This document shows positions 39,585-62,664 of a stretch of 64,000 nucleotides of DNA, piece after piece. The notes under the pieces were generated by a model. That model was not told the origin of the DNA, did not search any database, and saw only the letters and a program-made list of their open reading frames with translations. The position numbers were made by a program, and so were the translations under genes. Location: NCBI GenBank assembly GCA_016187035.1, contig JACPKL010000005.1, positions 71,150 to 135,149 on the forward strand, given 5' to 3'. The first letter of the stretch is position 1, and each line of letters starts with the position of its first letter. Source of the DNA: Candidatus Daviesbacteria bacterium (GTDB lineage: Bacteria > Patescibacteriota > Microgenomatia > Daviesbacterales > UBA10151).

Positions 39585-40652
39585 ATGGGTAAATATAAAA
39601 AGACAGCTTTAATTACTGGGTCTGCTGGGTTAATAGGTTCTGCTTCTGTAAGATTTTTCTCTGAAAAGGGTTTTAAAATCCTGGGGATTGATAATGATTC
39701 GAGGAAATATTTTTTTGGACCTTCAGCCTCAACAGCTTGGAATAAAAGAAAGCTTCTGAAGGAGGTTGATAATTATACTCATTTTAACGTTGATGTAAGG
39801 AATCAAAAGAAAATAGATCAAATTTTCAAAGATAATGAAATAGATTTAATTATTCATACCGCTGCGCAACCTTCACATGATTGGGCAGCCAAAGAACCTT
39901 CGACTGATTTTACAATTAATGCTTTTGGCACATTAATTTTACTTGAAGCATATAGACGTTTTGCACCAAATGCTGTTTTTATTTTTACTTCAACAAATAA
40001 AGTGTATGGTGATAATCCTAATAAGCTTCCTGTGAAAGAATTATCAACCAGATATGAATTGCCATTAAATCATAGATTGTATAATGGGATTGATGAAACA
40101 ATGAGCTTAGATAATACTACCCACAGTATTTTTGGAGTATCAAAGACCTCAGCAGATTTGATGGTTCAAGAGTATGGTAGATATTTTAATTTAAGAACGG
40201 GTATTTTTAGAGGAGGGTGTTTGACAGGTCCTGCTCATTCTTCAGCTCAACTTCATGGATTTTTGGCTTATCTTGTATTATCAATTGCTAATGGAGTTGA
40301 GTACACTATTTTTGGTTATAAAGGTAAGCAGGTTAGAGATAATATTCATTCTTATGATGTAGCTAATGCTTTTTATCACTTCTATCAAAAACCAAAAAAA
40401 GGTGAAGTTTATAATCTGGGTGGTTCAAGATATTCGAACACCTCTGTTATAGAAGCAATAGAAAAAATCGAAAAAGTTTTAGGTAAAAAGGCTAAGATTA
40501 AGTTTAATTCGCAAAACAGGATAGGAGATCATATTTGGTATATATCAGATGTTTCTAAATTTAAAAAACATTATCCGGATTGGGAATATACATATAATCT
40601 AGATCAAATTTTGTGGGAACTTTGTAAATTTGTCACACAACACAAAAAATGA
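39585..40652 (+). CDS. Extended SDR, NAD-dependent epimerase/dehydratase family (CDP-paratose/tyvelose 2-epimerase-like), with Phe at the canonical catalytic Tyr position.
   Basis: Rossmann motif [12 protein letters not shown]; STNKVYGD; the expected YxxxK reads HSIFGVSK (F183 = TTT at 40131-40133); [14 protein letters not shown]. Confidence 0.6.
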
Positions 40653-41773
40653 CTCATAAAAAATATAGAAAAATATTAGTAACTGGAGGAGCTGGATTTA
40701 TAGGATCCTTCTTAGTTGATGAATTAGTGAAACTAGGTTATCAGGTTAGGATTTTAGATAATCTGGAAGATCAGGTTCATCAGGGTAAAAAACCTAAATA
40801 TTTAAATAGGAATGCGGAATTTATCAAAGGAGATGTTAGAAAAATTTCAGATTTAAAAAGATCAATTGATAGGGTAGATGCAGTTTTTCATCTTGCTGCA
40901 GCAGTTGGAGTAGGGCAGTCTAATTACCAGATAAAAAAATATGTTGATACAAATATCGGAGGTACAGTTAATCTTTTAGAGTTACTCATAAATACTCAAC
41001 ATCAAATAAAGAAATTGATAACAATCTCAAGTATGACAGGATATGGCGAAGGTAATTATTTTTGTAAAAAAGATAATATAGTAAGACCTCCACTGAGAGA
41101 GGAAAAACGATTACGAGAAAAAGATTGGAATCTTTACTGTCCAAAATGCAACGGGGAAGTTACTCCTTTTCCAACCGATGAAACTGCACTGGATTTTCCT
41201 AATAGCATCTATGGTCTTTCTAAAAAAAACCAGCAAGACATGGTTTTTTTAATAGGCAAACTTTACAATATTCCCACAACAGTCCTTAGGGGATTTAATA
41301 TTTATGGCCCAAGGCAAAGTCTTTCTAATCCATATACAGGAGTGACAGCAATCTTTATTAGCAGGTTGAAAAATGATAAGCCGGCAGTAATTTTTGAAGA
41401 CGGCTTGCAGACTAGAGATTTTGTGTCTGTACACGATGTGATAAACGCATTTATATTGGCATTGGAAGAAGACAAAGCGAACTATCAATTATTTAATATT
41501 GGTTCAGGGAAAGGGACAACCATATTGGAAATAGCGCAAACCATTTCTAGTTTGCTTGAAAAAAAAGATTTAATAGATATTAATCAGGATTTCAGAAAGA
41601 ATGATATCAGACACTGTTTCGCTGATATTTCTAAGGTGGAGAGATTATTGGATTGGAAGCCCAAAATTAGTTTAGAAAAAGGTCTCAAAGAGTTAATTGA
41701 ATGGAGTGGAAACGAAGTTGCAGAAGATAAATTTTCCAAAGCCCAGCAACAATTAAAATCTTATGGATTATAG
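40649..41773 (+). CDS. Extended SDR, NAD-dependent epimerase/dehydratase, with a ~35-aa Cys-containing insertion between the catalytic Ser and YxxxK.
   Basis: ATGA overlap. Motifs [20 protein letters not shown] and [11 protein letters not shown]. The insertion reads [44 protein letters not shown]. Confidence 0.65.
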
Positions 41774-42543
41774 CAGCCGAATGCTGCTTTCAGTTGAGAA
41801 AGTAAGAAATTTAAATTCCCCTTTAGTAAGCTTATTTTAGTATGCACTTTGCCCTTTGCATATTTTCTTGAAACTGGTATCTCTTTAGTTTTTAAACCTA
41901 ACTGATTGGCTCTTACAGTAAGATACATATTAAGTTCATAATTTATGAAAATGTCCCTAAATGGTTGAACTTTTGGATGAGTCAAGTATTTCTTACTGTA
42001 CCCCCTGAATCCATTAGTAACATCAGTGTAATTATATCCTGCTCCTAAACTTAAAATAGGAGAAGCCAGTAATCTCACTGCAAGATAACGCAAAATAGGA
42101 GTATTTACAGCTTCACCGCCTTCTATAAATCTAGAACCTTGAATATAATCAAAACCATCATCCAGAGTCTTGATGAAGTTAGGAACTGCTTCTATGCCAT
42201 CTTTATTATTGCCATCGATTTGAATTATTCCTTTGTACCCCTCTTTTAACGCATAAGAAAAAGCAATTCTCAATTGACTGCCTTGTCTGCCGGAATCTTT
42301 CAAAGTAATAAGGCTTCTAATTTTCATTTTCTGTAAATATTTAGGATCTGTTGATCCATCAGTGCTCCCCCAATCAGCAATAATGATATCTATAAATTTT
42401 GAATAGGGTTTAAGTATTTCCAGTTGTTTTTTTATCTTTTCTCCCTCATTCAAAACAGGAATGCAAATACAGTATTTACTATTTTTTTTTCTGAATTCCT
42501 TGATATTAAATTGGGGTAATTGCCACTTTTTGTCCTTAAGCAT
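41761..42543 (-). CDS. GT2 glycosyltransferase, DPM1/GtrB-like (possible polyprenyl-phosphate sugar synthase).
   Basis: CICIPVLNEGEKIKKQLE..IIIADWGSTDGSTD..IQIDGNNKDG..GSRF..TNGFRGYSKKYL. The 3' end overlaps the convergent SDR gene by 13 nt. Confidence 0.5.
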   Translation of the reverse strand: MLKDKKWQLPQFNIKEFRKKNSKYCICIPVLNEGEKIKKQLEILKPYSKFIDIIIADWGSTDGSTDPKYLQKMKIRSLITLKDSGRQGSQLRIAFSYALKEGYKGIIQIDGNNKDGIEAVPNFIKTLDDGFDYIQGSRFIEGGEAVNTPILRYLAVRLLASPILSLGAGYNYTDVTNGFRGYSKKYLTHPKVQPFRDIFINYELNMYLTVRANQLGLKTKEIPVSRKYAKGKVHTKISLLKGNLNFLLSQLKAAFGCYNP

Positions 42544-42550
42544 AATTAAT

Positions 42551-42560
42551 ATGTTATTAT
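42551..42560. promoter_or_regulatory. Putative divergent promoter elements in the 25-bp gap between 42543(-) and 42569(+).
   Basis: Plus strand: extended -10 TGtTATTAT (42552-60), 8 nt, ATG 42569. Minus strand: TAACAT (complement of 42551-56), 7 nt, ATG 42543. No SD. Confidence 0.25.
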
Positions 42561-42568
42561 TTTAAATC

Positions 42569-43399
42569 ATGAACAGAAAATGCCCAGTATCTATAATCAT
42601 CACCACAAAGAATGAAGCTGGTGCGATTGGCATTTTACTTAGTAGTATAAACAAACAATCATACAAAAATATAGAGGTTATTTTAATAGATAATAGTTCA
42701 TACGATGGCACTCTAGAAATTGCCAGACAATTTCTAAATGTAAAAATTTACTCTTTGGGTCCTGAAAGATCAGCACAGAGAAATTTAGGTGCTAGAAAAA
42801 GTAAAGGTAAGTATCTGCTTTTTTTAGATGCCGATATGGAGCTTACCTCTGATGTTATAAAAGATTGTGTTGAGGTTGCAGAAAAAGAAAACTTGAGTGG
42901 AGTAGTTATTCCCGAGCAGTCAGTAGCGATAAATTTTTGGGGTAAAGTTAAAGCATTTGAACGATCGTTCTACAGCGAAAAAGGAGATCCAGTTACTGAT
43001 GCAGCAAGATTTTTTTTACGACAAGTTTTCTTTAAAGTAGGAGGTTACGATGAAAGTATCACGGGTCCTGAAGATTGGGATTTACCTGATAGGATTAGAG
43101 AAAGAGGTTTTAAAATTGGAAGAAGCTCAGAAAAGATATACCATCACGAACAAGATATTTCATTAATAATTTTATTTAAAAAAAAATTCTATTACGGTCT
43201 TAATGCTCATAAGTATTTAACTAAACATAATATTCCAGTTTTTAGTCCAAAAACTATTTATTTTTTAAGGCCCCTTTTTTATAAAAGTTGGGTTAGGTTA
43301 TTAAAACATCCAATTTTATCATTAGCAATGATATGGATGCTGCTTCTTGAGTTAGTTGGAGGAGGATTGGGTTACATAGCAGGAAGGATCAAAGAGTGA
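42569..43399 (+). CDS. GT2 glycosyltransferase with a C-terminal membrane anchor.
   Basis: VSIIITTKNEAGAIGILLSSINKQSYKNIEVILIDNSSYDGTLEIA, DxD motif LDADME, and C-terminal hydrophobic LSLAMIWMLLLELVGGGLGYIAG. Confidence 0.7.
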   Translation: MNRKCPVSIIITTKNEAGAIGILLSSINKQSYKNIEVILIDNSSYDGTLEIARQFLNVKIYSLGPERSAQRNLGARKSKGKYLLFLDADMELTSDVIKDCVEVAEKENLSGVVIPEQSVAINFWGKVKAFERSFYSEKGDPVTDAARFFLRQVFFKVGGYDESITGPEDWDLPDRIRERGFKIGRSSEKIYHHEQDISLIILFKKKFYYGLNAHKYLTKHNIPVFSPKTIYFLRPLFYKSWVRLLKHPILSLAMIWMLLLELVGGGLGYIAGRIKE

Positions 43400-44514
43400 A
43401 AGTACTGCAACTGACAGTTCATTTATTTCCAAATATTGGTGGCGTAGAAACTCATTTAAATGATTTATTCATCGCATTAATTAAAAGAGGTTGGAAAGTT
43501 GTAGTTTTGACTTATCAGCCACTTTCTACAAATACTGATTGGAAAGTAGTGGAAAAAAACGGAGAGCTCACTATTTTAAGAATGCCATGGTTAAGAGGTT
43601 TTTTTGAAAAACTAGTTCATCACCCGGTGATAGAATTTATATATCTTGTTCCAGGATTATTTTTGATTACCCCATTTTTAATAATTTTTTATCGACCAAA
43701 TGTGATACATGCACACGGAATCTCAGCCGCAGTTTCAGCTGTTTGCTGGGGTAATATTTTTAGAATTAGAACAGTTGTTTCTTTGCATAGTTTATATAGT
43801 TTTCCCAAAAGCGGAATGTATCATGACTTTGTCCAATTTTTACTTAAAAAAAGCGATTTTGTATTAAGTTTATCCAAAAAATCCAATCAGGAAGTACGAC
43901 TTTTGGGTATAGACGATAAAAAAACTGCCGTCTTTACTTATTGGATAAATTTGCAAAGATTTAAGTATACTCCTGATGCCAAGAAAAAATTGGGCTGGGA
44001 AAGAAAATTCATAGTTTTGTTTGTAGGTAGATTAATTGAAGAAAAAGGAATAAAACCTTTAGTAGAAGCTGCTTACCTTTGGAATAACAAAATTAATTTG
44101 GTTGTTATTGGGAGTGGATCTATGGAAGAGTATGTTTTAAAAAAAGCAAAAGAGCGGACAAATATATTCTTTATTGGAAAAGTTAACCAAAATGATCTAC
44201 AAATCTACTATAGTGCGGCAGATTGCGTGATTGTTCCTTCAGTTTCTGAAGAGGGATTTGGTAGGGTAATTATTGAATCTCTCTCTTGTAATACACCTGT
44301 TATTGCTTCGGACAGAGGAGCCACCAGAGAAGCTATGGATGAAACCGTAGGGGAGTTTATTGATGTCAGTCCTGAAAATATAAAACAAGCTGTTGAACAG
44401 CTTTATAAAAATCCTCAAAAGCTTAAAGATTATGCAAAAAGAACCCGTAAATTTGTTGAAAGGAGATATTCTGAAAATAATGTTCAGACTATTACCGAAG
44501 CATACAAAGGATAG
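43396..44514 (+). CDS. GT4 (group 1) glycosyltransferase; paralog of 55577..56719.
   Basis: GTG start in a GTGA overlap. N-terminus FPNIGGVETHLNDLFIALIKRGWKVVVLTYQPL. EX7E region EEGFGRVIIESLSCNTPVIAS. Confidence 0.7.
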   Translation: MKVLQLTVHLFPNIGGVETHLNDLFIALIKRGWKVVVLTYQPLSTNTDWKVVEKNGELTILRMPWLRGFFEKLVHHPVIEFIYLVPGLFLITPFLIIFYRPNVIHAHGISAAVSAVCWGNIFRIRTVVSLHSLYSFPKSGMYHDFVQFLLKKSDFVLSLSKKSNQEVRLLGIDDKKTAVFTYWINLQRFKYTPDAKKKLGWERKFIVLFVGRLIEEKGIKPLVEAAYLWNNKINLVVIGSGSMEEYVLKKAKERTNIFFIGKVNQNDLQIYYSAADCVIVPSVSEEGFGRVIIESLSCNTPVIASDRGATREAMDETVGEFIDVSPENIKQAVEQLYKNPQKLKDYAKRTRKFVERRYSENNVQTITEAYKG

Positions 44515-45328
44515 ATTAGAATCATTGCTTTCAAACGTAGGAGATATGTCTCTGAAAAGAAGAGCTAGGAAAATCATAGAAGGGACCAATCCGCAAAAGG
44601 GAGAAAGAATTGTTGATTTAGGTTGCGGTACTGGATATTATCTTTTTCTGCTTTCAAATCTAGGAATTAAATTTGATTTAACAGGTTTTGACTATGACAA
44701 GAGGGTTATTAAAGAAGCAGAAGATCTTTTAAGTGATAAGGAAATCAGATTCAAAATAGGGGACTTACATAAAATACCCTTCAAAAATTATGAATTTGAT
44801 AAAGCAGTAATGTCGGAAGTTTTGGAGCATGTTGAGAATGATAAAAAAGTATTACAGGAGATTTACAAAATATTAAAACCAAACGGAATTCTAGTAATTT
44901 CAGTCCCGAGTATAAGCTATCCGTTTCTATGGGATCCAATTAATTATATCTTGCAGCATTTTTTTAATACACATATCAAAAGCGGCTTTTTATCAGGTCT
45001 TTGGAGCGGACATTTAAGATTGTATGATAAGTTGGATCTTAAGAATAAGTTTGAGGAAGCTGGTTTTAAAATAGAAAAGATTGAAGAATTGACTTTTTGG
45101 TGTTTACCCTTTAATCATTATTTAGTAAATATAGTGGCTCGTCTGCTTTATGATGTTAAAATTTCCCCTAGGATTGCGGATAATTTATCAAAATTTAAAA
45201 ATACAAAAAAACCGCTTCTTATAAATCTTGCCTTTAAAATAGTAAACAGCATTGATAAACTTAATGAAATTTTTCCACAAAAACATGGTGTTAATATTTT
45301 TATTAAAGCGAGAAAAGTTCAAAAATGA
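44480..45328 (+). CDS. Class I SAM-dependent methyltransferase.
   Basis: Motif I VDLGCGTGYY; SEVLEHVEND; KPNGILVISVP. The start is uncertain (44480, 44546 or 44393). Confidence 0.65.
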   Translation: MFRLLPKHTKDRLESLLSNVGDMSLKRRARKIIEGTNPQKGERIVDLGCGTGYYLFLLSNLGIKFDLTGFDYDKRVIKEAEDLLSDKEIRFKIGDLHKIPFKNYEFDKAVMSEVLEHVENDKKVLQEIYKILKPNGILVISVPSISYPFLWDPINYILQHFFNTHIKSGFLSGLWSGHLRLYDKLDLKNKFEEAGFKIEKIEELTFWCLPFNHYLVNIVARLLYDVKISPRIADNLSKFKNTKKPLLINLAFKIVNSIDKLNEIFPQKHGVNIFIKARKVQK

Positions 45329-45357
45329 TTGACTAATTTTCTAGTTTAAAGTATTCT
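45329..45357 (+). promoter_or_regulatory. Putative sigma70-type promoter with leaderless geometry for 45365.
   Basis: TTGACT (45329-34), 17 nt, TATTCT (45352-57), 7 nt, ATG 45365. No SD. Confidence 0.3.
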
Positions 45358-45364
45358 TTGTCAG

Positions 45365-46393
45365 ATGAAGGAAGTGAAAAAAAATTTGAATTTCGCACTA
45401 ATTGGAGTAGGTTATTGGGGTCCAAACTACGCAAGAATTTTATCTGAGTTAGATGATATATATCTTTCCTGGTGTTGTGATCCAAATAAACAGGCACTTT
45501 CAAGGATGAAAAGACTTTATCCTACTATAAAAATAACTGAAAAACTGCAGGATATATTAAAAGATCAAGATGTTGATTGCGTGATAGTGGTAACTCCTGC
45601 TCAGACACACTACAAAATTGTTAAAAAAGCTCTGGAAAATAATAAACATGTCTTGGTAGAGAAACCTCTGACAGTGACTGTAAAAGATGCCAAGGAACTT
45701 GTTTCCCTTTCAAAAAAGCAAAAGAAGGTTTTGGCAGTTGATCATACTTTTAAACTAAATTCAGGAATCAAAAAATTAAAAGAAATTATAGATTCAGGAG
45801 AATTAGGGAAGATTTATTATATGTATGGGCTTTACAACGCTTTGGGACCAATCCGAAAGGACGTTTCTGCTATGTGGGATTTATCACCGCATTTTATTTA
45901 TACCGCAAACTACCTTTTGAATTCCAAACCGACATCTGTTTTGGCAAGAGGCAGAGATTTGTTAATTAAAGGAATGGATGATGTAGTTTTTATGACCTTT
46001 GAATATGAAAATGGTGTGCTTTTTAACCTGCATTCATCCTGGCTGGATCCGCTTAAAGTGAGAGAGTTAGTAGTCATCGGCTCAAATAAAATGGCTGTAT
46101 TTAATGATGTATCTCAAGATGCTAAACTTCAAATTTTTGACAAATCAGTAGTAGTAGACGGTGATCCAAATTTTGCCAAATTAAATGTAATTTTAAGAAT
46201 AGGAGATATGATTGTTCCAAAACTGGAAAACAAAGAGCCTTTAAAAGAGGTGGTTGTAGATTTTATAAAAAGTGTCAAAGATGGCAGTGAACCATTCTCT
46301 TCTGGAAAAGAAGGTTTGGAAATAGTTATGATTCTTTCTGCAGCCCAACAGTCTCTGAGGAGTAAAAAAGAGGTTTTATGCAAACTAAAATAA
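45365..46393 (+). CDS. Gfo/Idh/MocA-family NAD-dependent sugar oxidoreductase (WbpB/GnnA-like nucleotide-sugar 3-dehydrogenase).
   Basis: N-terminal Rossmann ALIGVGYWGPNYARIL, the VEKPLT motif, and genomic context with an aminotransferase and an acetyltransferase. Confidence 0.65.
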   Translation: MKEVKKNLNFALIGVGYWGPNYARILSELDDIYLSWCCDPNKQALSRMKRLYPTIKITEKLQDILKDQDVDCVIVVTPAQTHYKIVKKALENNKHVLVEKPLTVTVKDAKELVSLSKKQKKVLAVDHTFKLNSGIKKLKEIIDSGELGKIYYMYGLYNALGPIRKDVSAMWDLSPHFIYTANYLLNSKPTSVLARGRDLLIKGMDDVVFMTFEYENGVLFNLHSSWLDPLKVRELVVIGSNKMAVFNDVSQDAKLQIFDKSVVVDGDPNFAKLNVILRIGDMIVPKLENKEPLKEVVVDFIKSVKDGSEPFSSGKEGLEIVMILSAAQQSLRSKKEVLCKLK

Positions 46394-47022
46394 AGATATA
46401 CTCTAATGTTGATTTGGGTGAGGATAGTAGAGTTGATATGGGTGTTGTGATTGGCTTTTCGGAGAATGAAAAAGCAGAGAAAACAACTATCGGTAAAAAA
46501 GCAATATTAAGAGCCAATACATTTATTTATGCAGGAGTGGAAATAGGAGATAATTTCCAAACCGGACCTAATGTATTAGTTAGAGAAGATAATGTCATAG
46601 GAGATAATGTGGCGATTTGGCATGGTGCAACCATCAGCCCTGGTAATGTGATTGGAGATGGGTGTCGGATTCATGCCGGCAGCTTTCTGGAATTAGTCAC
46701 TCTGGGTAAAAGAGTATTTATTGGACCCGGGGTAGTATTTACAGATGATCCTCACCCGGTTAACCCTTCACCTAGAAAGCACTTTGGCGGAGCTACAGTT
46801 GATGATGAGGTTGTTATTGGAGGGCATGTTACCATCTTGCCTCATGTCAGGATAGGAAAGCATGCAATTATCGGTGCAGGTTCGGTTGTAACAAAAGATG
46901 TGCCTGCTGGAGAAGTTTGGGTTGGTAATCCGGCTAAATTTTTAAAGCTTGCACAGGAAATAAGTTGTAATATTGGAAAAGGAAAACACTTTCCTTATCA
47001 GGAATTTTGGAAGATAAAATAG
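46378..47022 (+). CDS. Left-handed beta-helix (hexapeptide-repeat) N-acetyltransferase (WbpD/WbbJ-like).
   Basis: Tandem hexapeptide repeats IGDNVAIWHGATISPGNVIGDGCRIHAGSFL..IGPGVVF..IGGHVTILPHVRIGKHAIIGAGSVV. Confidence 0.7.
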   Translation: MQTKIKIYSNVDLGEDSRVDMGVVIGFSENEKAEKTTIGKKAILRANTFIYAGVEIGDNFQTGPNVLVREDNVIGDNVAIWHGATISPGNVIGDGCRIHAGSFLELVTLGKRVFIGPGVVFTDDPHPVNPSPRKHFGGATVDDEVVIGGHVTILPHVRIGKHAIIGAGSVVTKDVPAGEVWVGNPAKFLKLAQEISCNIGKGKHFPYQEFWKIK

Positions 47023-47025
47023 ACT

Positions 47026-48132
47026 ATGAAAAAAATTAGTTTTGTGGATCTTAAAAGACAATATCGGGAAAACAAAACAGAGATAGATTTGGCAATTAAG
47101 CATGTTCTAGATAGTACACATTTCATTCTAGGAGAAGAAGTCGAACAATTTGAGAAAGAATTTGCAGAATTTATCGGCGTCAAATATGCAGTTAGTGTAG
47201 GTAGTGGCTTGTCTGCTTTGGAACTTGGAGTGAGAAGTTTAGAAATTGGCCAGGGAGATGAAGTTTTGGTACCTGTTAATACTTACATAGCTTCTGCTTC
47301 TGCAGTTTCTTTGGTAGGAGCAACTCCTGTTTTAGTAGATTGTTTGGAGGATACATTTAATATTGATGCAGAAAAAGCAGAAAAGTTAATCACCGAAAAA
47401 ACAAAAGCTATTATGCCAGTGCATTTATATGGACAAGTAGCAGATATGGAAAAAGTCTTAAGACTTGCCAAAAAACATAAATTATATGTAATAGAAGATG
47501 CCTGCCAAGCACATGGAGCCAGTATTAGAAGCAAAATGGCTGGAGGCTTTGGTATTATATCCGCTTTCTCCTTTTATCCTGGTAAGAATTTAGGTGCTTA
47601 TGGAGATGGAGGAATAGTTACAACAAATAACAAGACTATCGTAGATAAAATCAGAATGTTCAGAAACTATGGACAAAAAGAAAAGTATAAACACCTTTTG
47701 CTTGGCGGAAATAGCAGACTTGATAATTTACAAGCCTCAATTTTATTAGTTAAGCTAAAAAAGTTAAGATTATGGAATGCAAAAAGATTAGAAAATGCAA
47801 AATTATACAATAAATCTTTGGATGATTTACCCATTATTACTCCAAAGATTTTTCCAAATTACAACCACACCTTTCATTTATATGTAATCAGAGTAAAAGA
47901 TAGAGAAAAACTAATGAAATATCTTTCATCTGCAGGTATTCCTACCCAGATGCATTACCCGATTCCGATTCACCTGCAACCAGCATATAAGGAGTTAGGT
48001 TATAAAAAAGGAGATTTTCCCGTAGCGGAAAAATTAGCATCGGAGATTTTATCTTTGCCAATGTTTCCTGAACTTAAGTCGAGTGAGATTAAATACATCT
48101 GCCAAAAAATAAGAGATTTTTATCGTGGTTAA
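47026..48132 (+). CDS. DegT/DnrJ/EryC1/StrS-family PLP-dependent sugar aminotransferase (WbpE/GnnB-like).
   Basis: FEKEFAEFIGVKYAVSVGSGLSALEL; IEDACQAHGA; PLP-lysine region SFYPGKNLGAYGDGG. Confidence 0.8.
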   Translation: MKKISFVDLKRQYRENKTEIDLAIKHVLDSTHFILGEEVEQFEKEFAEFIGVKYAVSVGSGLSALELGVRSLEIGQGDEVLVPVNTYIASASAVSLVGATPVLVDCLEDTFNIDAEKAEKLITEKTKAIMPVHLYGQVADMEKVLRLAKKHKLYVIEDACQAHGASIRSKMAGGFGIISAFSFYPGKNLGAYGDGGIVTTNNKTIVDKIRMFRNYGQKEKYKHLLLGGNSRLDNLQASILLVKLKKLRLWNAKRLENAKLYNKSLDDLPIITPKIFPNYNHTFHLYVIRVKDREKLMKYLSSAGIPTQMHYPIPIHLQPAYKELGYKKGDFPVAEKLASEILSLPMFPELKSSEIKYICQKIRDFYRG

Positions 48133-48847
48133 AAACTCCTCCAAAATCAATCTTTCAATAATTATTCCTGTTTTTAATGAGGAAGCAGGCATTACACCAA
48201 CCATAATAAGAGTTTATGAAGATGCCAAGAAAAAAGTTATTACAGAATTGATTAATACTTTCGAGGTTATTGTAGTAGATGATGGCAGTTTTGATGAAAC
48301 TTTCCAAATTTTAATGAAGTTAAAGAAAAAATATAAAAAATTAAGAATTATTAAACACAACTCCAACAATGGATTGGGAGCATCTATTAATACCGGAGTC
48401 AGACACGCCAAAAAGGAATTTATAACCTATTTACCAGCAGATGGTCAGGTATTTTTGAGTGAAATCTCAGAAGGTTTAAAGATAGTTCCTTTTTGTGATT
48501 TAGTTCTAACCTACCGTGGTAAAAGAGGAGGCTATAATTCTTATCGGCATTTTTTATCAAATAGCTTAATGATAACAATGAAATTATTTTTTGGATTAAG
48601 TTTTAGGGATTATAATTGGGTTCATATTTACAAAAAAGATCTATTTAAATCAATTAAAATAAAATCAAAAGGAGTGTTTTATCTTGCTGAAGTAATTGCC
48701 AGAACAAATAAAGCAGGTTTCAAGATTCTAGAGGCTAAGGCTAAATATCATCCCAGAACAACTGGTTATGCTAAAAACGCAAAACCAAAAATTGTCATAA
48801 GGACTTTAATAGATTTACTCAAGCTTTGGATTGAATTAAATTTATGA
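48125..48847 (+). CDS. GT2 glycosyltransferase, DPM1/ArnC/GtrB-like polyprenyl-phosphate sugar synthase.
   Basis: GTG start overlapping the aminotransferase gene by 8 nt. LSIIIPVFNEEAGI..EVIVVDDGSFDETFQIL..NNGLGASINTGVRHAKKEFITYLPADGQ. Confidence 0.6.
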   Translation: MVKNSSKINLSIIIPVFNEEAGITPTIIRVYEDAKKKVITELINTFEVIVVDDGSFDETFQILMKLKKKYKKLRIIKHNSNNGLGASINTGVRHAKKEFITYLPADGQVFLSEISEGLKIVPFCDLVLTYRGKRGGYNSYRHFLSNSLMITMKLFFGLSFRDYNWVHIYKKDLFKSIKIKSKGVFYLAEVIARTNKAGFKILEAKAKYHPRTTGYAKNAKPKIVIRTLIDLLKLWIELNL

Positions 48848-48872
48848 TAATATGTTAATATAAAACTATAAT

Positions 48873-49352
48873 ATGAAAAAGATAATTATCGTATTATTAT
48901 TTCTTGTTTTGGTACCTTCCATTTCTGCTCAAGAATTGGAAAAAATTAATTTACCCGCTCAAGTTGTTAATCCAGGGGATTTTTATTATTCTGCAATAAG
49001 ACTTTGGGAGAAAATAACAGAGAGATTTCAATTTAACAATGATGCAAAGTTTAGATATTCAAGTTCTCTGATTGATAAAAGGGTTTCTGAGCTTATCTTT
49101 GTTATAAAAGATAAAAGATTAGACGAAGTTCAAAGATCATCTGAAAGATTAGCTTATCAAGTAGGTGTGTTAACAGAATTCCTGATTAAACAAAAAAGCA
49201 GCCAAGAAAAAGAACAATTAAGAGCAAAGATTAATGGATTTCTTCCTGCTCTTTCAGAATTAAGGGATGCATATCCGGCTAATTCAAGCTATTGGATGTT
49301 AGTACAACATGATATTAATTCTTTTAAGGAATATTCAGAAAAACTAAAATAG
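48873..49352 (+). CDS. Small secreted helical protein (DUF5667-like).
   Basis: Signal peptide MKKIIIVLLFLVLVPSISAQ. NPGDFYYSAIRLWEKITERF resembles the PG..Y..KR..EK motif of DUF5667 proteins. The remainder is predicted helical. Confidence 0.4.
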   Translation: MKKIIIVLLFLVLVPSISAQELEKINLPAQVVNPGDFYYSAIRLWEKITERFQFNNDAKFRYSSSLIDKRVSELIFVIKDKRLDEVQRSSERLAYQVGVLTEFLIKQKSSQEKEQLRAKINGFLPALSELRDAYPANSSYWMLVQHDINSFKEYSEKLK

Positions 49353-49355
49353 TTT

Positions 49356-51137
49356 TCAATTATTTTTTAGGTCTTCAGTAATCTTTTGGCGGATTTGATC
49401 GGTAATGTTTATCAGTTCACCATTTCTAAAATCAAAAGCAAAAACCCTTGAAATAGGCACTGGATTTGGTTTTCTACCATGCAATTTTGCTAAGGTTTCT
49501 CCGCTGCTTACCATTTTAAGGAGTTCTTCATAATGCTCAGTTGGAATTGGGGTGTTTAGCCAATCAGTGATTCCGTATAATAATCCGCCATGAGGGGGGA
49601 AACCGAAAGAGAAAATCATATAAATTGCGGTTGGGTTATCAGTGCTAAAATAAAATACGCTCGGATTTTCTTTATCAATAGCAGGGACATTTTGTAATAA
49701 CACATCCCACGCTTTGTTAGCCAAATTAATATTTCGATTTTCTTCTAAATTAGTTAAATATATGTTGGCAGCCTCAAGGTTAATTTTCAGCCAAAATACT
49801 AATAAGACCATCGGAACAAAAAAGGTCAGCATTTTTATTCTTTTTCTAGAACTAGATCTTTCAATAATTAGCCATAATAAACTAGCAAATAAAATGGAAA
49901 AGCCAAAAGCACCCATTGTCATGTATCGTCCAGTTGTTTCTATTATCAGATAGGGAGTTCTAACCCAATAAAGGAATGAAAAAGAAATAAGCCAAATAAG
50001 ACCTATGATTATTGAGGCGACTTGCAGTAAATTGGTTTTTCTAAGTTGCCAAAAAAGTATTGTTGGAACTGTTATTAAATGAATGCCCATTAATATTGAA
50101 ATAATATTTGTAGATGAAAGGAGGGGGTTCCAAAATAATAATAATTTTCCCAAGAATATTTCTAAGATATTAAAGACAAAAAAATAGCCTAACATTTTCT
50201 TTCCTCCTCTTAAGGTTAGAACCAAAATAGAATCCGCTAAAATAAAACATAGACCTAGCAGTGATAAGCGTCCAAAGATAACTCCGCCTGTAGCAGTATC
50301 TGGAAAAACAAAATTTCCAATAATTCCAAAAAAATAAAAAAATACATCATATCTTCCCTTTTGGATCATTTCCACTAAATAAGTAAATCCGGTTTTGAGT
50401 GGTAAATTATCCCCAGAGTTTCCAAAACTGCCAAGCTTAATAAGCACAAACAAAATAATTATGGGGGTAAGGATTCTTAAGAAAAAAAACTTATCCGGCC
50501 TGAATTTTCTATCTTTCTGAATAAAAAAAGAAAAAATAAATTCAATCATCCCTAAAAAAATGACTGCACCATGCATTCTAACAGGGACAATACTTAAGGC
50601 TAGTGTAAATAAAACAACAAAAAAAATATATCTCAAAAAAAATTGAACTTTAGGATTATTTAGTTTTAGATAAAAAATTATAGAGAGATTTAAAAAGAAA
50701 ACACCCGCATAAGTATTCATATTAAAAACCCAATCAGTAGTTTGCAGTCCAGCTGCCGAGAAAGTAAATATTATGGTTGAAAGATAAGCTGGTAATGATT
50801 TTTTTGTCATTTTTTTCATTAAAAAAAATAACGAGATTGTTGCCAATATTCTTAAGAATAAGGATGAAGCAAAATAGGCGATTGGTTCATAACCGGAAAA
50901 ATGCCTAATTATTCCAAGAAATAAATATTGTGGCCAGTAGGGACTTAGGTATGAATTAATATTAAAGAAAGATGAGGTTTTATAAACATCAAATGATAGC
51001 CACAAATTATATAATTGTTCCCAGTCATCACCGTAAAGTGCCAAGTTAAGGGTTTTTTTCAAATAAATATAAGTGAGTAAAGGAATAACAATCAATATCC
51101 AAATGATTTGAAACTTAAAATAAAGTCTTTTTCCCAT
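49356..51137 (-). CDS. Polytopic membrane protein of an uncharacterised GT-C-like family; paralog of 51708..53543.
   Basis: First loop LYGDDWEQLYNLW, shared motifs TDWVFNMNTYAG and RMHGA, about 14 TM helices, and C-terminal soluble domain PSVFYFSTDNP..HGRKPNPVPISRVFAFDFRNGELINIT. Confidence 0.4.
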   Translation of the reverse strand: MGKRLYFKFQIIWILIVIPLLTYIYLKKTLNLALYGDDWEQLYNLWLSFDVYKTSSFFNINSYLSPYWPQYLFLGIIRHFSGYEPIAYFASSLFLRILATISLFFLMKKMTKKSLPAYLSTIIFTFSAAGLQTTDWVFNMNTYAGVFFLNLSIIFYLKLNNPKVQFFLRYIFFVVLFTLALSIVPVRMHGAVIFLGMIEFIFSFFIQKDRKFRPDKFFFLRILTPIIILFVLIKLGSFGNSGDNLPLKTGFTYLVEMIQKGRYDVFFYFFGIIGNFVFPDTATGGVIFGRLSLLGLCFILADSILVLTLRGGKKMLGYFFVFNILEIFLGKLLLFWNPLLSSTNIISILMGIHLITVPTILFWQLRKTNLLQVASIIIGLIWLISFSFLYWVRTPYLIIETTGRYMTMGAFGFSILFASLLWLIIERSSSRKRIKMLTFFVPMVLLVFWLKINLEAANIYLTNLEENRNINLANKAWDVLLQNVPAIDKENPSVFYFSTDNPTAIYMIFSFGFPPHGGLLYGITDWLNTPIPTEHYEELLKMVSSGETLAKLHGRKPNPVPISRVFAFDFRNGELINITDQIRQKITEDLKNN

Positions 51138-51141
51138 ATGA

Positions 51142-51708
51142 TTAACTTTTATGATTATCCGTACTTATTATAAATGCCATATGGGAAAAAGGATACCAAA
51201 AAGGTTTTTTAAGTACTATTACTTTGGATTTAAATCCTAAACTTTTAATTAAATCTTGCCATTCGTATTTTGTCCTCATTGAAAGAGGAACATGTAGGTT
51301 TCCATAATGGAATTTATTTAAAATAACATCAGCCAGCTTACCTAAAATTGTTGGTTCAAATTCGAACAGAAGAACTTTTTTTCCAACGCGTGCTGCTTCT
51401 TTTAAAACATTTTTTTGATATTCTTTATCAACATGATGTAAGACATCATTCAGTAGAGAAAAATCAAAACTATTATTTTTGACAGGAATTTTCCCATTCT
51501 CTATTTTTATAAATGGGACCTTATAGATTAAATAATTTTTGATATCAGCGCCTGTAACTTTTGAGGGGTAATAATCTCCCAGGATTTTTGTTACTACGCC
51601 GGTTCCACAACCTATGTCTAGAATGCTGTTTCCTTTTTTAATCCACTTCTTGTATACTGAAATTATTAGTTTAGTTCTGTAAACAGATGTCAGTTGAGAG
51701 GTATTCAT
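51142..51708 (-). CDS. Class I SAM-dependent methyltransferase.
   Basis: Motif I ILDIGCGTGVV; LNDVLHHV. TAATG overlap with the upstream gene. Confidence 0.65.
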   Translation of the reverse strand: MNTSQLTSVYRTKLIISVYKKWIKKGNSILDIGCGTGVVTKILGDYYPSKVTGADIKNYLIYKVPFIKIENGKIPVKNNSFDFSLLNDVLHHVDKEYQKNVLKEAARVGKKVLLFEFEPTILGKLADVILNKFHYGNLHVPLSMRTKYEWQDLIKSLGFKSKVIVLKKPFWYPFSHMAFIISTDNHKS

Positions 51709-53543
51709 TATTTATTTAGTGTTTTCAAATCTTCAGTCAATTTATTTCGTACTGCAGTTGTAATGTTAATTAGTACTCCGTTTCTAAAATCGAATGCATA
51801 AATTCTAGATAATGGTACAGGTAGAGGTTTCCTTCCGTGAACTTTTTGTAATGGTGACCCATCTGTTACATAAGAAAGTAATTCCTGGTAATCGGTTGAA
51901 GGCAGAGGGGTTAAATCTTGATCAGGAATCTTATATGTCATACCCGCACGCATAAAAAATCCAAATACTAATACTCCTTGTAAAGACAAAGGATTGTCAG
52001 TTGTGAAATAAAATACTGAAGGCCCAATTGGATCAAGCTTTGGTACATCTTTTAATAAAGTATTCCAGGTTTTTTCGGTAAGTTCCCTATTTCTTGTTTG
52101 TTCAAGGATTCCTAAATAAGTTTGGCTTCTTTGGAAATTAGTAAAAATCCAAAAAAGGAGGATAAATATAGCTAAAAGTAAATAAAAACTACTTAATATT
52201 CTAGTCTTTTCATTTTTTTGGAGGGAAACAGTTTGAAAAAAAAGGAGGCTTACGAAACTTCCTAAGAATATAGCAATACCAGTAGCCCCCATCAGCATAT
52301 ATCGGCTTGTTGTCTCAATAAGGTAATAGGGAGTAAAAAGCCAATATATTATTGTCATCATTATTATCCAAATTAAAGAAATAATCAAGCTTGAGGAAAG
52401 TTGAGGAGAACTCTTGCCAGATAAGATAGAAAGCCAAATAGACCAAAAAATAAACTGACCACCTAATGCAATTGAAAATAAAACATCAGAGGGAAGATAA
52501 GGGTTTAAAGTATAAAGCGGATTCGGATTTATGGAGACAATCCATCCTAATATTAGTGTCCAGATAAAGTTAAAGATGAGAATCGGGAGATAAAAAAGCA
52601 GGCTTTTCCCTTTTGAAAAAAGCCAAGAGACAATTATGCCTAAAATTATTGAAATACCATTTGTCAGAAAAATTACACTTGTAAAATTATCCAAACTAAT
52701 ACTATCAGGTAATACCAAATGTCCCAGGATTCCTAAGAAATAAAACCAGATTGCATAATAACCTTTGTGATTGATCTTTTGTAAAATTTGAGAACTTTCT
52801 GATAATCGATCTGTGGTGAAAGAACCTTCCCCAAAACTTTTAAGATGTAAAAGTAATACAAAAACTAGAATGGTCATAATAATTCTAATAAGTAGGAAGC
52901 GGTTAATTTTGAACTGACTTTTTTCTGCTACAAAAGTTAAAAATAGATCCACAATAATTAAGAAAGGGACGGCTCCGTGCATTCTTGTTGGTACAATTGC
53001 TAGTGCTAGTATGAATGTCATGATAAATAGAATATAGTTAAAAGAATAAATAGTATTAAGTTTCCGAATTTTTAAATAAAATACTGAAGCAAGGCTTAAT
53101 AAACCTAATCCAGCGTAGGTATTCATGTTAAAAACCCAATCAGTAGTTTGTAAACCGGCAGCTGAAAATAGGAATATAATAGTTGACAATATCGCTGCCA
53201 ACTTACTTCCAGTTAGTTCAAAAGTAAAAAAATAAAGACTAATATTTGCAAATAATCTGCTTAAATATGAAGCAATAAAATATGCAGGGGGGTAATAGCC
53301 CCAGAAATGATTAATAATGCCAAGATAAAAATATTCAGGCCAATAAGGATTAAGATATGATCTGATATCATAAAAAGACTTTGTGTGATAAACAAAAAAA
53401 TCCCGCCACAGATTATAAAGATGCTGCCAGTCATCCCCATAAAGACCAAGATTAAATGATTTGCGGAAAACAAATACAGCTATGAGGGGAAGAAATGCAA
53501 ATAACCAGATAAAAATAAAACGATTAGTGCTTCTCTGAGGCAT
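51708..53543 (-). CDS. Polytopic membrane protein of an uncharacterised GT-C-like family; paralog of 49356..51137.
   Basis: LYGDDWQHLYNLW, TDWVFNMNTYAG, RMHGA, and C-terminal PSVFYFTTDNP..HGRKPLPVPLSRIYAFDFRNGVLINIT. Confidence 0.4.
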   Translation of the reverse strand: MPQRSTNRFIFIWLFAFLPLIAVFVFRKSFNLGLYGDDWQHLYNLWRDFFVYHTKSFYDIRSYLNPYWPEYFYLGIINHFWGYYPPAYFIASYLSRLFANISLYFFTFELTGSKLAAILSTIIFLFSAAGLQTTDWVFNMNTYAGLGLLSLASVFYLKIRKLNTIYSFNYILFIMTFILALAIVPTRMHGAVPFLIIVDLFLTFVAEKSQFKINRFLLIRIIMTILVFVLLLHLKSFGEGSFTTDRLSESSQILQKINHKGYYAIWFYFLGILGHLVLPDSISLDNFTSVIFLTNGISIILGIIVSWLFSKGKSLLFYLPILIFNFIWTLILGWIVSINPNPLYTLNPYLPSDVLFSIALGGQFIFWSIWLSILSGKSSPQLSSSLIISLIWIIMMTIIYWLFTPYYLIETTSRYMLMGATGIAIFLGSFVSLLFFQTVSLQKNEKTRILSSFYLLLAIFILLFWIFTNFQRSQTYLGILEQTRNRELTEKTWNTLLKDVPKLDPIGPSVFYFTTDNPLSLQGVLVFGFFMRAGMTYKIPDQDLTPLPSTDYQELLSYVTDGSPLQKVHGRKPLPVPLSRIYAFDFRNGVLINITTAVRNKLTEDLKTLNK

Positions 53544-53554
53544 GCTAGAGATTA

Positions 53555-53618
53555 TTGCATAAAAAACAGATAATTGACAAGCGCGGCATTTGCATAAAAA
53601 GATTAATCTAGCTAAAAT
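53555..53618. promoter_or_regulatory. Divergent promoter region with an 11-nt direct repeat TTGCATAAAAA (53555-65 and 53590-600).
   Basis: Plus strand: TTGCAT (53590-95), 17 nt, TAAAAT (53613-18), 11 nt, ATG 53630. Minus strand: TTGTCA, 17 nt, a TGcAATAAT-like element, 7 nt, ATG 53543. A TTGACA also sits at 53574-79. Confidence 0.3.
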
Positions 53619-53629
53619 CTTTCTAAGTT

Positions 53630-54673
53630 ATGAATAAAAAAAATAAATGGCCATCGGTTTCGGTAGCTATTGCTACTAGGAATTCAGAAAGAACGTTAGC
53701 GCTTTGTCTATCTTCAGTCAGAAACCAAAATTATCCTTCTGGTTTAGAAATAATTATTGCTGACGGAGGATCTGTTGATCAGACACTGGTTATTGCCAGA
53801 AGATTTAAGAGTAGAATTATTAATGTTCCAGAGTACAAACAAAATGCAGAATACAACAAAGGAGTAGCAGTAAAAAAGTGCAAAAACGAGATTCTCTTAA
53901 TGATTGATCATGATAATATCTTGCCTCATAAGAATTGGCTTAAGAATATGATTAGACCGCTTGTTGAGGATAGTACTATTATTGGTAGCGGTGTTTTAAG
54001 ATTTCATTATGACAAAGATATGTCACTAGTTGATCGGTATTCAGCTCTTTATGGAGGTACAGATCCTGTGACCATCTTTTTTAACAAAAGTGCACACCAA
54101 GGTTATCTTTACCAAAATTTTCATTTAAAAGGAGAACTTGTCGAAGAAAGAAAGTATTATTATAAGGTACAGCTTTATCCAAATGCACTTCCAGCCTTGG
54201 GAGGTAATGGATCAATTTTAAGAAGAAGCTTATTGAAATACGCAAATACCAAGGCACAATATTTTTTTCATATAGATATTCATGTAGATTTGGCAAAGAA
54301 AGGTTACACAACTTACGCCTTTGTTAAAGATACAATCATTCATTTAACAAACAATAATTTCATACCGTTTTTAAGAAGAAGGAGATATTTTATTGAGAAA
54401 TATCATTTTGTAGATCATACAAAAAGAAGATACAGCATATATGATTCAAAAACAGATAAGTCGGCTTTACTTGGATATGTTGTTTATTCTCTGTCTATAA
54501 TATTGCCCACTTTAGATGCAATGCGAGGGTTTATTAAAATACGTGATTATGCCTGGTTTTTACATCCATTGATGTGTTTAGGGATTCTATTGGTTTATGG
54601 TATAACTACTATTAAGGAAGGAGTAAAAAATGTCTTTTTGGCAGGGAACAGTAGTGTTGGTTACCGGGGCTAG
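53630..54673 (+). CDS. GT2 glycosyltransferase with C-terminal TM helices.
   Basis: VSVAIATRNSERTLALCLSSVRNQNYPSGLEIIIADGGSVDQTLVIA, DxD motif IDHDN, and C-terminal hydrophobic segments. Confidence 0.65.
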   Translation: MNKKNKWPSVSVAIATRNSERTLALCLSSVRNQNYPSGLEIIIADGGSVDQTLVIARRFKSRIINVPEYKQNAEYNKGVAVKKCKNEILLMIDHDNILPHKNWLKNMIRPLVEDSTIIGSGVLRFHYDKDMSLVDRYSALYGGTDPVTIFFNKSAHQGYLYQNFHLKGELVEERKYYYKVQLYPNALPALGGNGSILRRSLLKYANTKAQYFFHIDIHVDLAKKGYTTYAFVKDTIIHLTNNNFIPFLRRRRYFIEKYHFVDHTKRRYSIYDSKTDKSALLGYVVYSLSIILPTLDAMRGFIKIRDYAWFLHPLMCLGILLVYGITTIKEGVKNVFLAGNSSVGYRG

Positions 54674-62044: not shown

Positions 62045-62049
62045 TAAAG

Positions 62050-62661: not shown

Positions 62662-62664
62662 ATA

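Follow-up and report, generated by a model that had tools for sequence, protein, structure and literature searches.

A 64,000-nucleotide stretch of DNA from Candidatus Daviesbacteria bacterium (assembly GCA_016187035.1, contig JACPKL010000005.1, positions 71,150 to 135,149 of the forward strand; the whole stretch is referred to here as the window) raises the question of where an unusual sugar goes once it has been made. At 45365–48847, three genes for enzymes that are predicted to build a nucleotide-linked 3-acetamido-3-deoxy sugar are followed by the gene for a small family 2 glycosyltransferase (GT2), and an initial annotation of the DNA had proposed that the two parts work together, with the sugar being loaded as a monosaccharide onto polyprenyl phosphate (Pren-P) in the manner of the Arn pathway. 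The answer favoured here, with a probability of roughly 0.6, is that the locus encodes an Arn-like, three-component type of lipid-carrier glycosylation for a 3-acetamido-3-deoxy sugar. The relationship of the GT2 to ArnC and its allies, together with the association between the GT2 and the sugar-forming enzymes in other genomes, carries most of this argument.

The four-gene cassette

The cassette is formed of four intact open reading frames (ORFs) on the same (+) strand, in the order that had been given for them, and Pfam bears out the family named for each. The first (45365–46393) encodes a 342-residue NAD-dependent oxidoreductase of the Gfo/Idh/MocA family, containing both the N-terminal and the C-terminal GFO_IDH_MocA domains, and is predicted to act as a nucleotide-sugar 3-dehydrogenase. 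The second (46378–47022) starts 16 nt before the end of the oxidoreductase gene and encodes a 214-residue left-handed β-helix hexapeptide N-acetyltransferase (Pfam Hexapep, E 2.7e-26), which is predicted to acetylate the 3-amine. The third (47026–48132), beginning 3 nt past the acetyltransferase stop codon, encodes a 368-residue pyridoxal phosphate-dependent aminotransferase of the DegT family (Pfam DegT_DnrJ_EryC1, E 5.5e-123) and is a predicted sugar 3-aminotransferase. The last (48125–48847) encodes the GT2, a 240-residue protein of the DPM1/ArnC/GtrB type (Pfam Glycos_transf_2, E 3.8e-22) that would serve as a Pren-P 3-acetamido-sugar synthase. Its GTG start codon at 48125 lies within the end of the aminotransferase gene (...TAT CGT GGT TAA), which confirms the 8-nt overlap described previously. 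A start further upstream in the same frame does not fit, as the conserved PVFNEE motif starts at residue 15.

The window has a G+C content of about 31% and its genes are tightly packed. A scan covered all 54 of its ORFs of at least 120 residues, among which there is no match to a UDP-sugar 6-dehydrogenase (UDPG_MGDP_dh), as had been noted earlier, or to a 2-epimerase. A scan of 42000–54000 for promoters and terminators returned counts equal to the shuffled expectation and so carries no information on where operons begin or end.

A glycosyltransferase of the ArnC type

Searched on its own, the GT2 sequence gives weak matches to solved structures of GT2s, mainly over its N-terminal half. A search of 5.8 billion proteins recovered 1693 relatives, the few named amongst them being Patescibacteria, including Levybacteria. 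A profile made from 30 of the relatives (A1) matches three ArnC structures, the dolichol-phosphate mannose synthase of Pyrococcus furiosus (PfDPMS; the enzyme class is abbreviated DPMS) and Synechocystis GtrB across positions 4–227, with E-values of 1e-40 to 6e-36, whereas chondroitin synthase, heparosan synthase, TarS-like proteins and other GT2s match it only over the first 100–180 positions. The best solved relatives are the ArnC structures. In keeping with the profile, the AlphaFold2 model of the protein, which has a predicted local distance difference test score (pLDDT) of 92.4, finds ArnC, DPMS and GtrB as its top Foldseek matches with query template-modelling scores (TM-scores) of 0.70–0.78, and its amphipathic helices at 139–156 and 221–239 correspond to the juxtamembrane helices of these three enzymes. 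By profile and by modelled fold the GT2 belongs with the Pren-P glycosyltransferases of the ArnC/DPMS/GtrB type, from which its activity is predicted, rather than with the processive or soluble-acceptor GT2s.

In ArnC and PfDPMS, roles have been assigned to the residues responsible for binding the metal, the nucleotide and the acceptor phosphate (PMC12690121, PMC5526996), and counterparts of these residues can be recognised in the window GT2. D106 and Q108 align with the metal-binding D102 and Q104 of ArnC, R131 and R141 with R128 and R137 of ArnC and with R117 and R131 of PfDPMS, S145 with S135 of PfDPMS, and R211 with R205 of ArnC and R202 of PfDPMS. These positions are conserved, as is D162, and the four that correspond to the acceptor-phosphate and nucleotide-diphosphate residues (R131, R141, S145 and R211) are invariant in a 19-sequence alignment of the clade.

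The GT2 ends at residue 240 and no transmembrane (TM) segments are predicted for it, so that it has no C-terminal TM helices; longer relatives of 304–311 residues carry two. Such helices are not universal in the family, being present in ArnC, GtrB and PfDPMS and absent from PpgS and human DPM1. The NCBIfam model for PpgS aligns to residues 12–201 of the window protein.

The PxD motif

The characteristic DXDxQ motif of the family is retained in part. The GT2 reads 104-PADGQV-109 where ArnC has DADLQN, GtrB has DADLQD and DPMS has DADLQH, meaning that D106 and Q108 are kept and that P104 replaces the first aspartate. In PfDPMS this aspartate forms a hydrogen bond with the C2 hydroxyl group of the mannose donor, and the D89A variant of that enzyme keeps residual activity (PMC5526996). 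The papers of 2025 on ArnC and GtrB propose that the first aspartate acts as the catalytic base, and they describe the motif as universally conserved (PMC12690121, PMC12698845).

The replacement is widespread amongst the closest relatives of the window GT2. When 1.84 billion cluster representatives were searched exhaustively with a profile, 2076 clusters scored E<=1e-30, and in the best 122 clusters of less than 800 residues the motif is P-x-D in 91 and D-x-D in 13, with the Arg/Arg/Ser/Asp/Arg set being kept. The size and conservation of this PxD clade argue against decay. It may be speculated that the loss of a carboxylate that contacts the C2 hydroxyl fits a donor with acetamido groups on its C2/C3 face, and, equally speculatively, that the function of the base could be supplied by the nearly invariant H167 or by the invariant D162, which aligns with D158 of ArnC and with the aspartate of the KD(P) motif of PfDPMS. 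The equivalent of GtrB D157 was also considered as an alternative base; the aligned position in the GT2 is not an aspartate and no equivalence is claimed. If the predicted activity is correct, the PxD enzymes would represent a natural counter-example to the first DXD aspartate as the universal catalytic base of Pren-P glycosyltransferases. The conserved natural change from aspartate to proline bears on whether this aspartate or another residue acts as the base in ArnC, GtrB and DPMS.

The predicted sugar-forming module

The oxidoreductase finds its best NCBIfam match in the archaeal UDP-N-acetylglucosamine (UDP-GlcNAc) 3-dehydrogenase model NF040723 (167 bits, E 5e-49), the next family being inositol 2-dehydrogenase at 95 bits. 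A profile of its cassette-linked orthologs matches GnnA (7bvj) with an E-value of 8e-32 and the longest coverage, at third rank among the solved relatives, of which GnnA is the best characterised. The protein has the two-domain organisation of the Gfo/Idh/MocA family, and its E99-K100-P101 (EKP) and D172xxxH176 (DxxxH) motifs are invariant among the cassette-linked orthologs.

The aminotransferase scores 411 bits against the Pfam DegT model, and its alignment to QdtB is full length and takes in the lysine motif SFYPGKNLG. Among solved structures its ten closest relatives are 7b0d, QdtB, 7n63, DesV, two structures of WlaRG, a Coxiella enzyme and three structures of WbpE. The characterised enzymes in this group are sugar 3-aminotransferases, with scores of 292–367 bits (QdtB 367, DesV 342, WbpE 294), whereas 4-aminotransferases score lower, with perosamine synthase at 223 bits and ArnB at 176 bits. 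A closer relationship to the sugar 3-aminotransferases than to the 4-aminotransferases is thereby supported, and the regiochemistry predicted from it is that of C3, in line with the nearness of the oxidoreductase to the UDP-GlcNAc 3-dehydrogenase model and to GnnA. The best solved relative of the acetyltransferase is also an enzyme of 3-amino sugars, the N-acetyltransferase QdtC (3fs8), which matches residues 32–208 with an E-value of 6e-29; WlbB (3mqg) matches at 2e-13.

The keto group would be supplied in this locus by the Gfo-type 3-oxidase and not by the RmlB/QdtA route. No TM segment is predicted in any of the three module proteins. The earlier claim of a 3-acetamido nucleotide-sugar chemistry is upheld by these family affinities as far as the C3 modification is concerned, although the product may be something other than the 2,3-diacetamido sugar GlcNAc3NAc. 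UDP-GlcNAc3NAc is the leading guess from the enzyme families, with UDP-Glc3NAc or another 3-acetamido hexose being possible.

Association of the module with the glycosyltransferase

A stronger argument for a link between the module and the GT2 comes from other genomes than from the gene overlap. In the loci with the most similar GT2s (L001, L002/3 and L004/5; GT2 identity 59–71%) the order oxidoreductase–acetyltransferase–aminotransferase–GT2 is kept, two of them also sharing the 8-nt overlap, and the GT2 is followed by a secreted DUF5667-like protein and then by a membrane protein of about 610 residues. At 46% GT2 identity (L006 and L007) the arrangement is different, the GT2 gene being divergent from the oxidoreductase, the acetyltransferase and, in part, the aminotransferase genes. 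The other annotated glycosyltransferases of these two loci are exclusively of the GT-C type (YfhO, three PMT_2, PTPS_related and MptA/B-like), and the GT2 is therefore the sole annotated cytoplasmic enzyme there that could use the nucleotide sugar. At 30–34% identity (L008 and L090) the oxidoreductase gene overlaps the start of the GT2 gene by 4 nt and the aminotransferase gene is found 3–6 kb away; L008 contains two such oxidoreductase–GT2 sets.

Scans of GTDB genomes and of Joint Genome Institute (JGI) metagenomes with a generic E-V-I-V-V-D-D-G-S pattern yielded, among the matches listed, GT2s of 24–40% identity, which serve as a background set and were the source of a further locus, the JGI contig L101. 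Here the oxidoreductase, acetyltransferase and aminotransferase are 42%, 43% and 53% identical to those of the window, and after them comes, overlapping by 13 nt, one ORF of 779 residues (7992–10331). Its first 229 residues constitute a PxD-type GT2 (234 bits against the A1 profile), and the remainder is a GT-C domain of the PMT_2 type in which a YNPDE loop follows the first TM helix. The phylum label of L101 rests on relatives of this fusion protein that are named Elusimicrobiota or Endomicrobiia.

Neighbours were also counted for the DPM1-like GT2 ORFs of 174 loci, using those ORFs that have flanks of at least 3 kb. Of 20 PxD-type GT2s, 10 have a Gfo-type gene at a distance of 3 kb or less, as against 2 of 129 DxD-type GT2s, one of these two being a second GT2 of L101. 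The samples are non-independent because several loci are orthologous, but the difference between the two types is large. Moreover, gene fusions join the GT2 to the same kinds of partner. A DegT::GT2 fusion (P0313) has an aminotransferase part that is 49% identical to that of the window over its full length, and the PxD clade also includes fusions of the GT2 to a hexapeptide acetyltransferase (P0387), to a methyltransferase (P0339) and to polytopic GT-C-like domains (P0352 and P0393). In three cases (P0272, P0287 and P0299) a PxD GT2 is joined to a polysaccharide deacetylase (Polysacc_deac_1), with no TM segments in two of the proteins and a single one in the third; this pairing within one protein, which resembles that of ArnC with ArnD, suggests de-N-acylation of the lipid-linked sugar. 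One relative (L089) adjoins genes for a C-methyltransferase, a short-chain dehydrogenase/reductase (SDR) and a Gfo-type enzyme, neighbours that suggest a different C3-modified sugar. Taken together these observations point to the PxD clade as a group of Pren-P glycosyltransferases that handle tailored, often C3-modified, sugars. The coupling of the module to a lipid-carrier GT2, as put forward in the initial annotation, is consequently strengthened by rearranged loci and fusions, while the overlap that had been offered as its evidence does not carry it.

Fusions of a GT2 to a GT-C domain recur as proteins of 717–804 residues (L101, P0220–P0231, P0255, P0352 and P0393), the named members of the L101 family coming from Elusimicrobiota or Endomicrobiia, and a protein of 1198 residues combines a GT2 with YfhO. 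Such fusions unite in one polypeptide the synthase that makes the donor in the cytoplasm and the transferase that works on the extracytoplasmic side. Separately, a DxD clade with a TDGDxQY motif adjoins aminotransferases of the DegT family that are 36–48% identical to that of the window, without a Gfo-type gene (L017, L022, L030, L106, L112, L125 and L126); where the genomes are named they belong to Acidobacteriota (Vicinamibacterales) and Actinomycetota (Acidimicrobiia). These pairs may represent other pathways from amino sugars to lipid carriers.

Some of the comparison loci contain further genes of note. L008 (1–16690) also encodes several membrane proteins of 590–600 residues without a Pfam match, B12-binding radical-SAM proteins and an arylsulfotransferase that bears a Por secretion tail. 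Asparagine-synthase-like genes (GATase_7 with Asn_synthase) recur at L004 14264–16126 and L173 2135–4048, in Patescibacteria and Elusimicrobiota, and may amidate a sugar or peptide component in these glycan loci.

Downstream genes and candidate transferases

Directly after the GT2 gene, at 48873–49352 (+), lies a gene for a small secreted helical protein with a hydrophobic, signal-like segment at residues 1–23 and a weak match to DUF5667 (E 3e-5). A homolog stands directly 3' of the GT2 gene in L001, L002/3 and L004/5 as well, and the protein could be an accessory factor or a candidate glycosylation acceptor.

Beyond it, on the opposite strand, are two related membrane proteins separated by a methyltransferase. 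The larger, of 611 residues (51708–53543, −; HYW41_01900), is a GT-C-fold protein and a candidate extracytoplasmic transferase. The smaller, of 593 residues (49356–51137, −; HYW41_01890), is a putative GT-C enzyme and a paralogue that is 42% identical, scores 812 bits against the family profile (A2), has about 10 TM segments and carries a YGDDW motif after TM1 as in the larger protein. The two accessions, from Candidatus Daviesbacteria bacterium (Patescibacteria, of the Candidate Phyla Radiation, CPR), are identical to the window proteins. The gene between them (51142–51708, −) encodes an S-adenosylmethionine-dependent methyltransferase (Pfam Methyltransf_11, Methyltransf_25 and Methyltransf_23) whose membership of the system is uncertain.

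Neither of the two membrane proteins matches a Pfam or NCBIfam family, even at E 5, and they therefore fall outside the described GT-C families. The profile of the 611-residue family also has no match at E 10 among PDB sequences, so that a comparison of folds was needed. The AlphaFold2 model (pLDDT 85.9) is polytopic with a C-terminal α/β domain, and its first 16 Foldseek matches are all GT-C enzymes (STT3, AglB, ArnT and DPY19), with probabilities of 0.99–1.00 and query TM-scores of 0.28–0.51; AftB, AftA, Pmt4 and PglB come next in the ranking. In GT-C enzymes the catalytic acidic residues are found in the first outer loop after TM1, and the polytopic 611-residue family has an invariant G36-D37-D38-W39 motif at exactly this place, right after TM1. 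The protein thus models as a member of a new GT-C-fold family. Ninety-nine relatives were found, with Daviesbacteria or Patescibacteria as the only phylum-level names.

Orthologs of the 611-residue protein adjoin the cassette in L002 and L004/5, and in L002 an extra, distant member of the family directly follows the DUF5667-like gene. The two proteins are accordingly the best candidates for a transferase with the lipid-linked sugar as its donor. The neighbouring GT-C enzyme in other lineages is YfhO or PMT_2, and hence the acceptors probably differ.

Proposed pathway and its alternatives

The pathway would begin with the oxidation by the Gfo/Idh/MocA enzyme of C3 of a cytoplasmic nucleotide sugar, for which UDP-GlcNAc is likeliest whilst UDP-glucose or another nucleoside diphosphate hexose is possible. 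The DegT enzyme would transaminate the resulting 3-keto group and the hexapeptide enzyme would N-acetylate the 3-amine, to give UDP-GlcNAc3NAc or a close analogue. The GT2, as a peripheral protein attached to the membrane through its pair of amphipathic helices, may then move the sugar onto Pren-P at the cytoplasmic face, after which the Pren-P-sugar would be flipped across the membrane. Finally, a GT-C enzyme, with the products of 51708–53543 and 49356–51137 as the best candidate, would pass the sugar to an envelope acceptor, as is suggested by the neighbourhood and by the fusions found elsewhere.

A number of observations weigh against this pathway. The replacement of the first DXD aspartate by P104 removes the residue that recent papers propose as the catalytic base. 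The 167 bits of the oxidoreductase do not reach the equivalog cut-off of 450 of NF040723, and the aminotransferase and acetyltransferase are nearer to QdtB and QdtC, which are enzymes of dTDP-sugars, than to WbpE and WlbB, with the consequence that the nucleotide and the C2 and C6 substituents of the product sugar are not fixed by sequence. Overlaps occur at 26 of the 42 same-strand gene junctions in the window, and the 8-nt overlap is, therefore, real but not distinctive. No flippase of the GtrA_DPMS_TM or SMR type is found among the window ORFs, which leave no unassigned intergenic space of more than 115 nt. Cytoplasmic GT2 and GT4 genes at 42569–44514 could be the true consumers of the nucleotide sugar. 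In the comparative data, the DegT::GT2 fusion occurs on one contig only, where a lost stop codon is possible, no module is found near several PxD GT2s (among them the YPADLQY group and P0093), and none lies near the Elusimicrobiota GT2::GT-C fusions at 47–50% identity, which makes the arrangement in L101 one instance and not the rule. The notion that the fusion is always tied to a sugar module is ruled out by the same module-free proteins. With respect to the flippase, two MOP/Wzx-like proteins are encoded in the window, at 2692–4161 and 36363–37673, and might stand in for one; for another three-component system, a flippase of the MATE family has been proposed (PMC11127046).

One alternative is that the order of events is reversed, with the GT2 loading a common sugar such as GlcNAc onto Pren-P and the oxidoreductase, aminotransferase and acetyltransferase remodelling C3 of the lipid-linked sugar where it lies at the surface of the membrane. 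The oxidoreductase–GT2 pair is the most persistent association seen, with the 4-nt overlaps in L008 and L090 and the aminotransferase gene at a distance, and the deacetylase fusions make tailoring after attachment plausible within the clade. There are precedents in ArnD, which works on a lipid-linked sugar, and in on-lipid redox and epimerisation chemistry, which is known for enzymes of the DprE1/E2 type and has been proposed for pentofuranose three-component systems (PMC11127046). However, none of the three module proteins has a predicted membrane segment, and the proline in place of the sugar-contacting aspartate is easier to explain if the donor sugar has already been modified. The characterised relatives (GnnA, WbpB/E/D, QdtB/C and MMP0350–0352) moreover all act on nucleotide sugars. 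A pathway in this order is accordingly considered improbable.

A second alternative, also given a low probability, is that the cassette is the product of incidental adjacency within a glycan island. The module would then feed upstream enzymes that build a repeat unit on undecaprenyl diphosphate for export by Wzx, and the 240-residue GT2 would make an ordinary Pren-P-hexose for an unrelated GT-C enzyme. A GT2 (42569–43399), a GT4 (43396–44514) and a methyltransferase do lie directly upstream and are co-conserved in L001 and L004; the window also has two Wzx-like genes, along with numerous GT-C enzymes and at least two further DPM1-like GT2s, and gene overlaps are usual in it. Such an arrangement does not, however, explain why L006 and L007 keep the module and the GT2 together when their other annotated glycosyltransferases are GT-C only, why the module in L101 is directly upstream of a GT2::GT-C fusion, why DegT::GT2 and acetyltransferase::GT2 fusions exist, or why Gfo-type genes are so strongly enriched beside PxD rather than DxD GT2s. 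The neighbourhoods, counts and fusions together make incidental adjacency unlikely.

That the GT2 is catalytically impaired, or transfers to some other acceptor such as a soluble phospho-compound, a glycerolipid or a protein, is suggested by the proline in place of a supposedly universal base and by the lack of predicted TM segments, but is very improbable given its conserved acceptor-phosphate arginines, serine and juxtamembrane helices, the TM-less members PpgS and eukaryotic DPM1 of the same family, the PxD-type domains fused straight to GT-C domains and the residual activity of the PfDPMS variant described above.

The lipid-carrier pathway for a 3-acetamido sugar is therefore retained as the preferred explanation. 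A wider proposal, that a large PxD subfamily of Pren-P glycosyltransferases, partly specialised for C3-modified (3-keto, 3-amino or 3-acetamido) sugars, forms together with new GT-C families a widespread pathway for decorating cell surfaces with amino sugars in Patescibacteria, Elusimicrobiota and other phyla, is decidedly more tentative.

Comparison with known systems

The predicted system resembles the Arn pathway, by which lipid A is modified with L-Ara4N. In both, a nucleotide amino sugar is formed by oxidation, DegT-type transamination and N-acylation, an ArnC-type GT2 moves it to the lipid carrier (undecaprenyl phosphate in Arn), and after flipping a GT-C enzyme delivers it, the steps in the window being predicted from its genes. 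The GT2::deacetylase fusions of the PxD clade likewise mirror the pairing of ArnC with ArnD. The two systems differ in the position of the amino group, which is at C4 in Arn and at C3 here, in the oxidising enzyme, which is the SDR/decarboxylase ArnA in the former and a Gfo/Idh/MocA oxidase in the latter, and in the acyl group, since the amine is formylated in Arn and would be acetylated here by a hexapeptide enzyme. Furthermore, the window GT2 is TM-less with PxD instead of DXD, no ArnE/F-like flippase was found in the window, and the GT-C proteins belong to an unclassified family. Patescibacteria are not known to make lipid A, and the acceptor must therefore differ from that of Arn.

The pairing of a Pren-P-monosaccharide synthase with a GT-C enzyme is the hallmark of three-component glycosylation (PMC11127046). 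The GtrA/GtrB/Gtr* and CsbB/GtcA/YfhO systems are similar to the proposed one in combining a GtrB-type synthase with a GT-C-fold transferase, and YfhO and PMT_2 proteins adjoin the relatives of the window GT2. Unlike the window locus, with its dedicated three-enzyme module, these systems carry unmodified glucose, galactose or GlcNAc from the general pool, and the GtrA/GtcA-type flippase gene that they contain is not present here.

Several other systems place amino sugars (N-acetylgalactosamine/galactosamine or GlcNAc/glucosamine) on Pren-P for delivery by a GT-C enzyme, namely PpgS (Rv3631) with Rv3779 in mycobacteria, FlmF2/NaxD/FlmK in Francisella and LgmA/LgmC/LgmB in Bordetella. PpgS is, as is the window protein, a short TM-less DPM1-like GT2, and these systems may be viewed as the closest analogues of a short TM-less amino-sugar Pren-P synthase. 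They use 2-amino sugars from general metabolism, and none is known to include a 3-amino or 3-acetamido sugar or a Gfo/DegT module.

The enzyme classes and the predicted sequence of C3 oxidation, transamination and N-acetylation are those of WbpB/WbpE/WbpD, which lead to UDP-GlcNAc3NAcA, and of the archaeal MMP0352/0351/0350, GnnA/GnnB and QdtB/QdtC. In contrast to the WbpB/E/D type of pathway, the window has neither a 6-dehydrogenase nor a 2-epimerase, and no RmlA, RmlB or QdtA set accompanies its enzymes. The products of the known pathways, moreover, go to cytoplasmic glycosyltransferases or to LpxA and not to a Pren-P GT2. A literature search found no description of a Pren-P-linked 3-acetamido sugar or of this cassette, although such absence is not proof of novelty. 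The features that set the predicted system apart are the dedicated module for C3 oxidation, amination and acetylation, the PxD variant, the lack of an identifiable flippase, the unclassified GT-C family and a host phylum without known lipid A.

If the prediction is correct, the known lipid-phosphate-linked monosaccharide donors, which comprise glucose, galactose, mannose, GlcNAc, N-acetylgalactosamine, 4-deoxy-4-formamidoarabinose (Ara4FN), galacturonic acid and pentofuranoses, would gain a 3-acetamido and possibly a 2,3-diacetamido sugar. It would also give a concrete, testable function to a part of the GT-C-rich envelope machinery of the CPR, whose surfaces are essentially uncharacterised, and would define a GT-C family together with its probable donor.

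Other genes of the window

The abundance of GT-C enzymes to which the initial annotation had drawn attention is borne out by 11 ORFs with significant matches to GT-C-type Pfam families (PMT_2, PMT, YfhO and GT87/PIG-U) and one with a weak match to PMT_2. At least 18 polytopic membrane proteins are encoded across 959–33382 and 49356–53543, a density of GT-C enzymes that is extraordinary for a small CPR genome. Large polytopic proteins without a Pfam match are encoded at 4154–7594 (1146 residues), 7594–9579, 26849–28501 and 35215–36375.

Two further DPM1-like GT2s match the Pren-P glycosyltransferase profile over their full length. One (26084–26827; 91 bits) is preceded by a tandem run of three PMT_2 genes and carries HPD instead of DXD. 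The other (37597–38439; 149 bits), which overlaps a Wzx-like gene, is aberrant at this motif, with DSGMD. Counting these two enzymes, the window probably gives rise to three or more different lipid-linked monosaccharide donors.

When the SDR enzymes encoded nearby (39585–41773 and 54630–55580) were compared with NCBIfam models, all matches fell far below the cut-offs and so did not narrow down the identity of the sugar. At 60783–63642 (−) a GHMP kinase, with the heptose-7-phosphate kinase HddA as its best match, a SIS isomerase, a HAD phosphatase and a sugar-1-phosphate nucleotidyltransferase are grouped together in what looks like a nucleotide-sugar pathway of the GDP-glycero-manno-heptose type. 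Lastly, the gene at 56702–57712 (−) encodes a protein with the C-terminal domain of a GT10 fucosyltransferase (E 5e-11), a family that is uncommon in bacteria.

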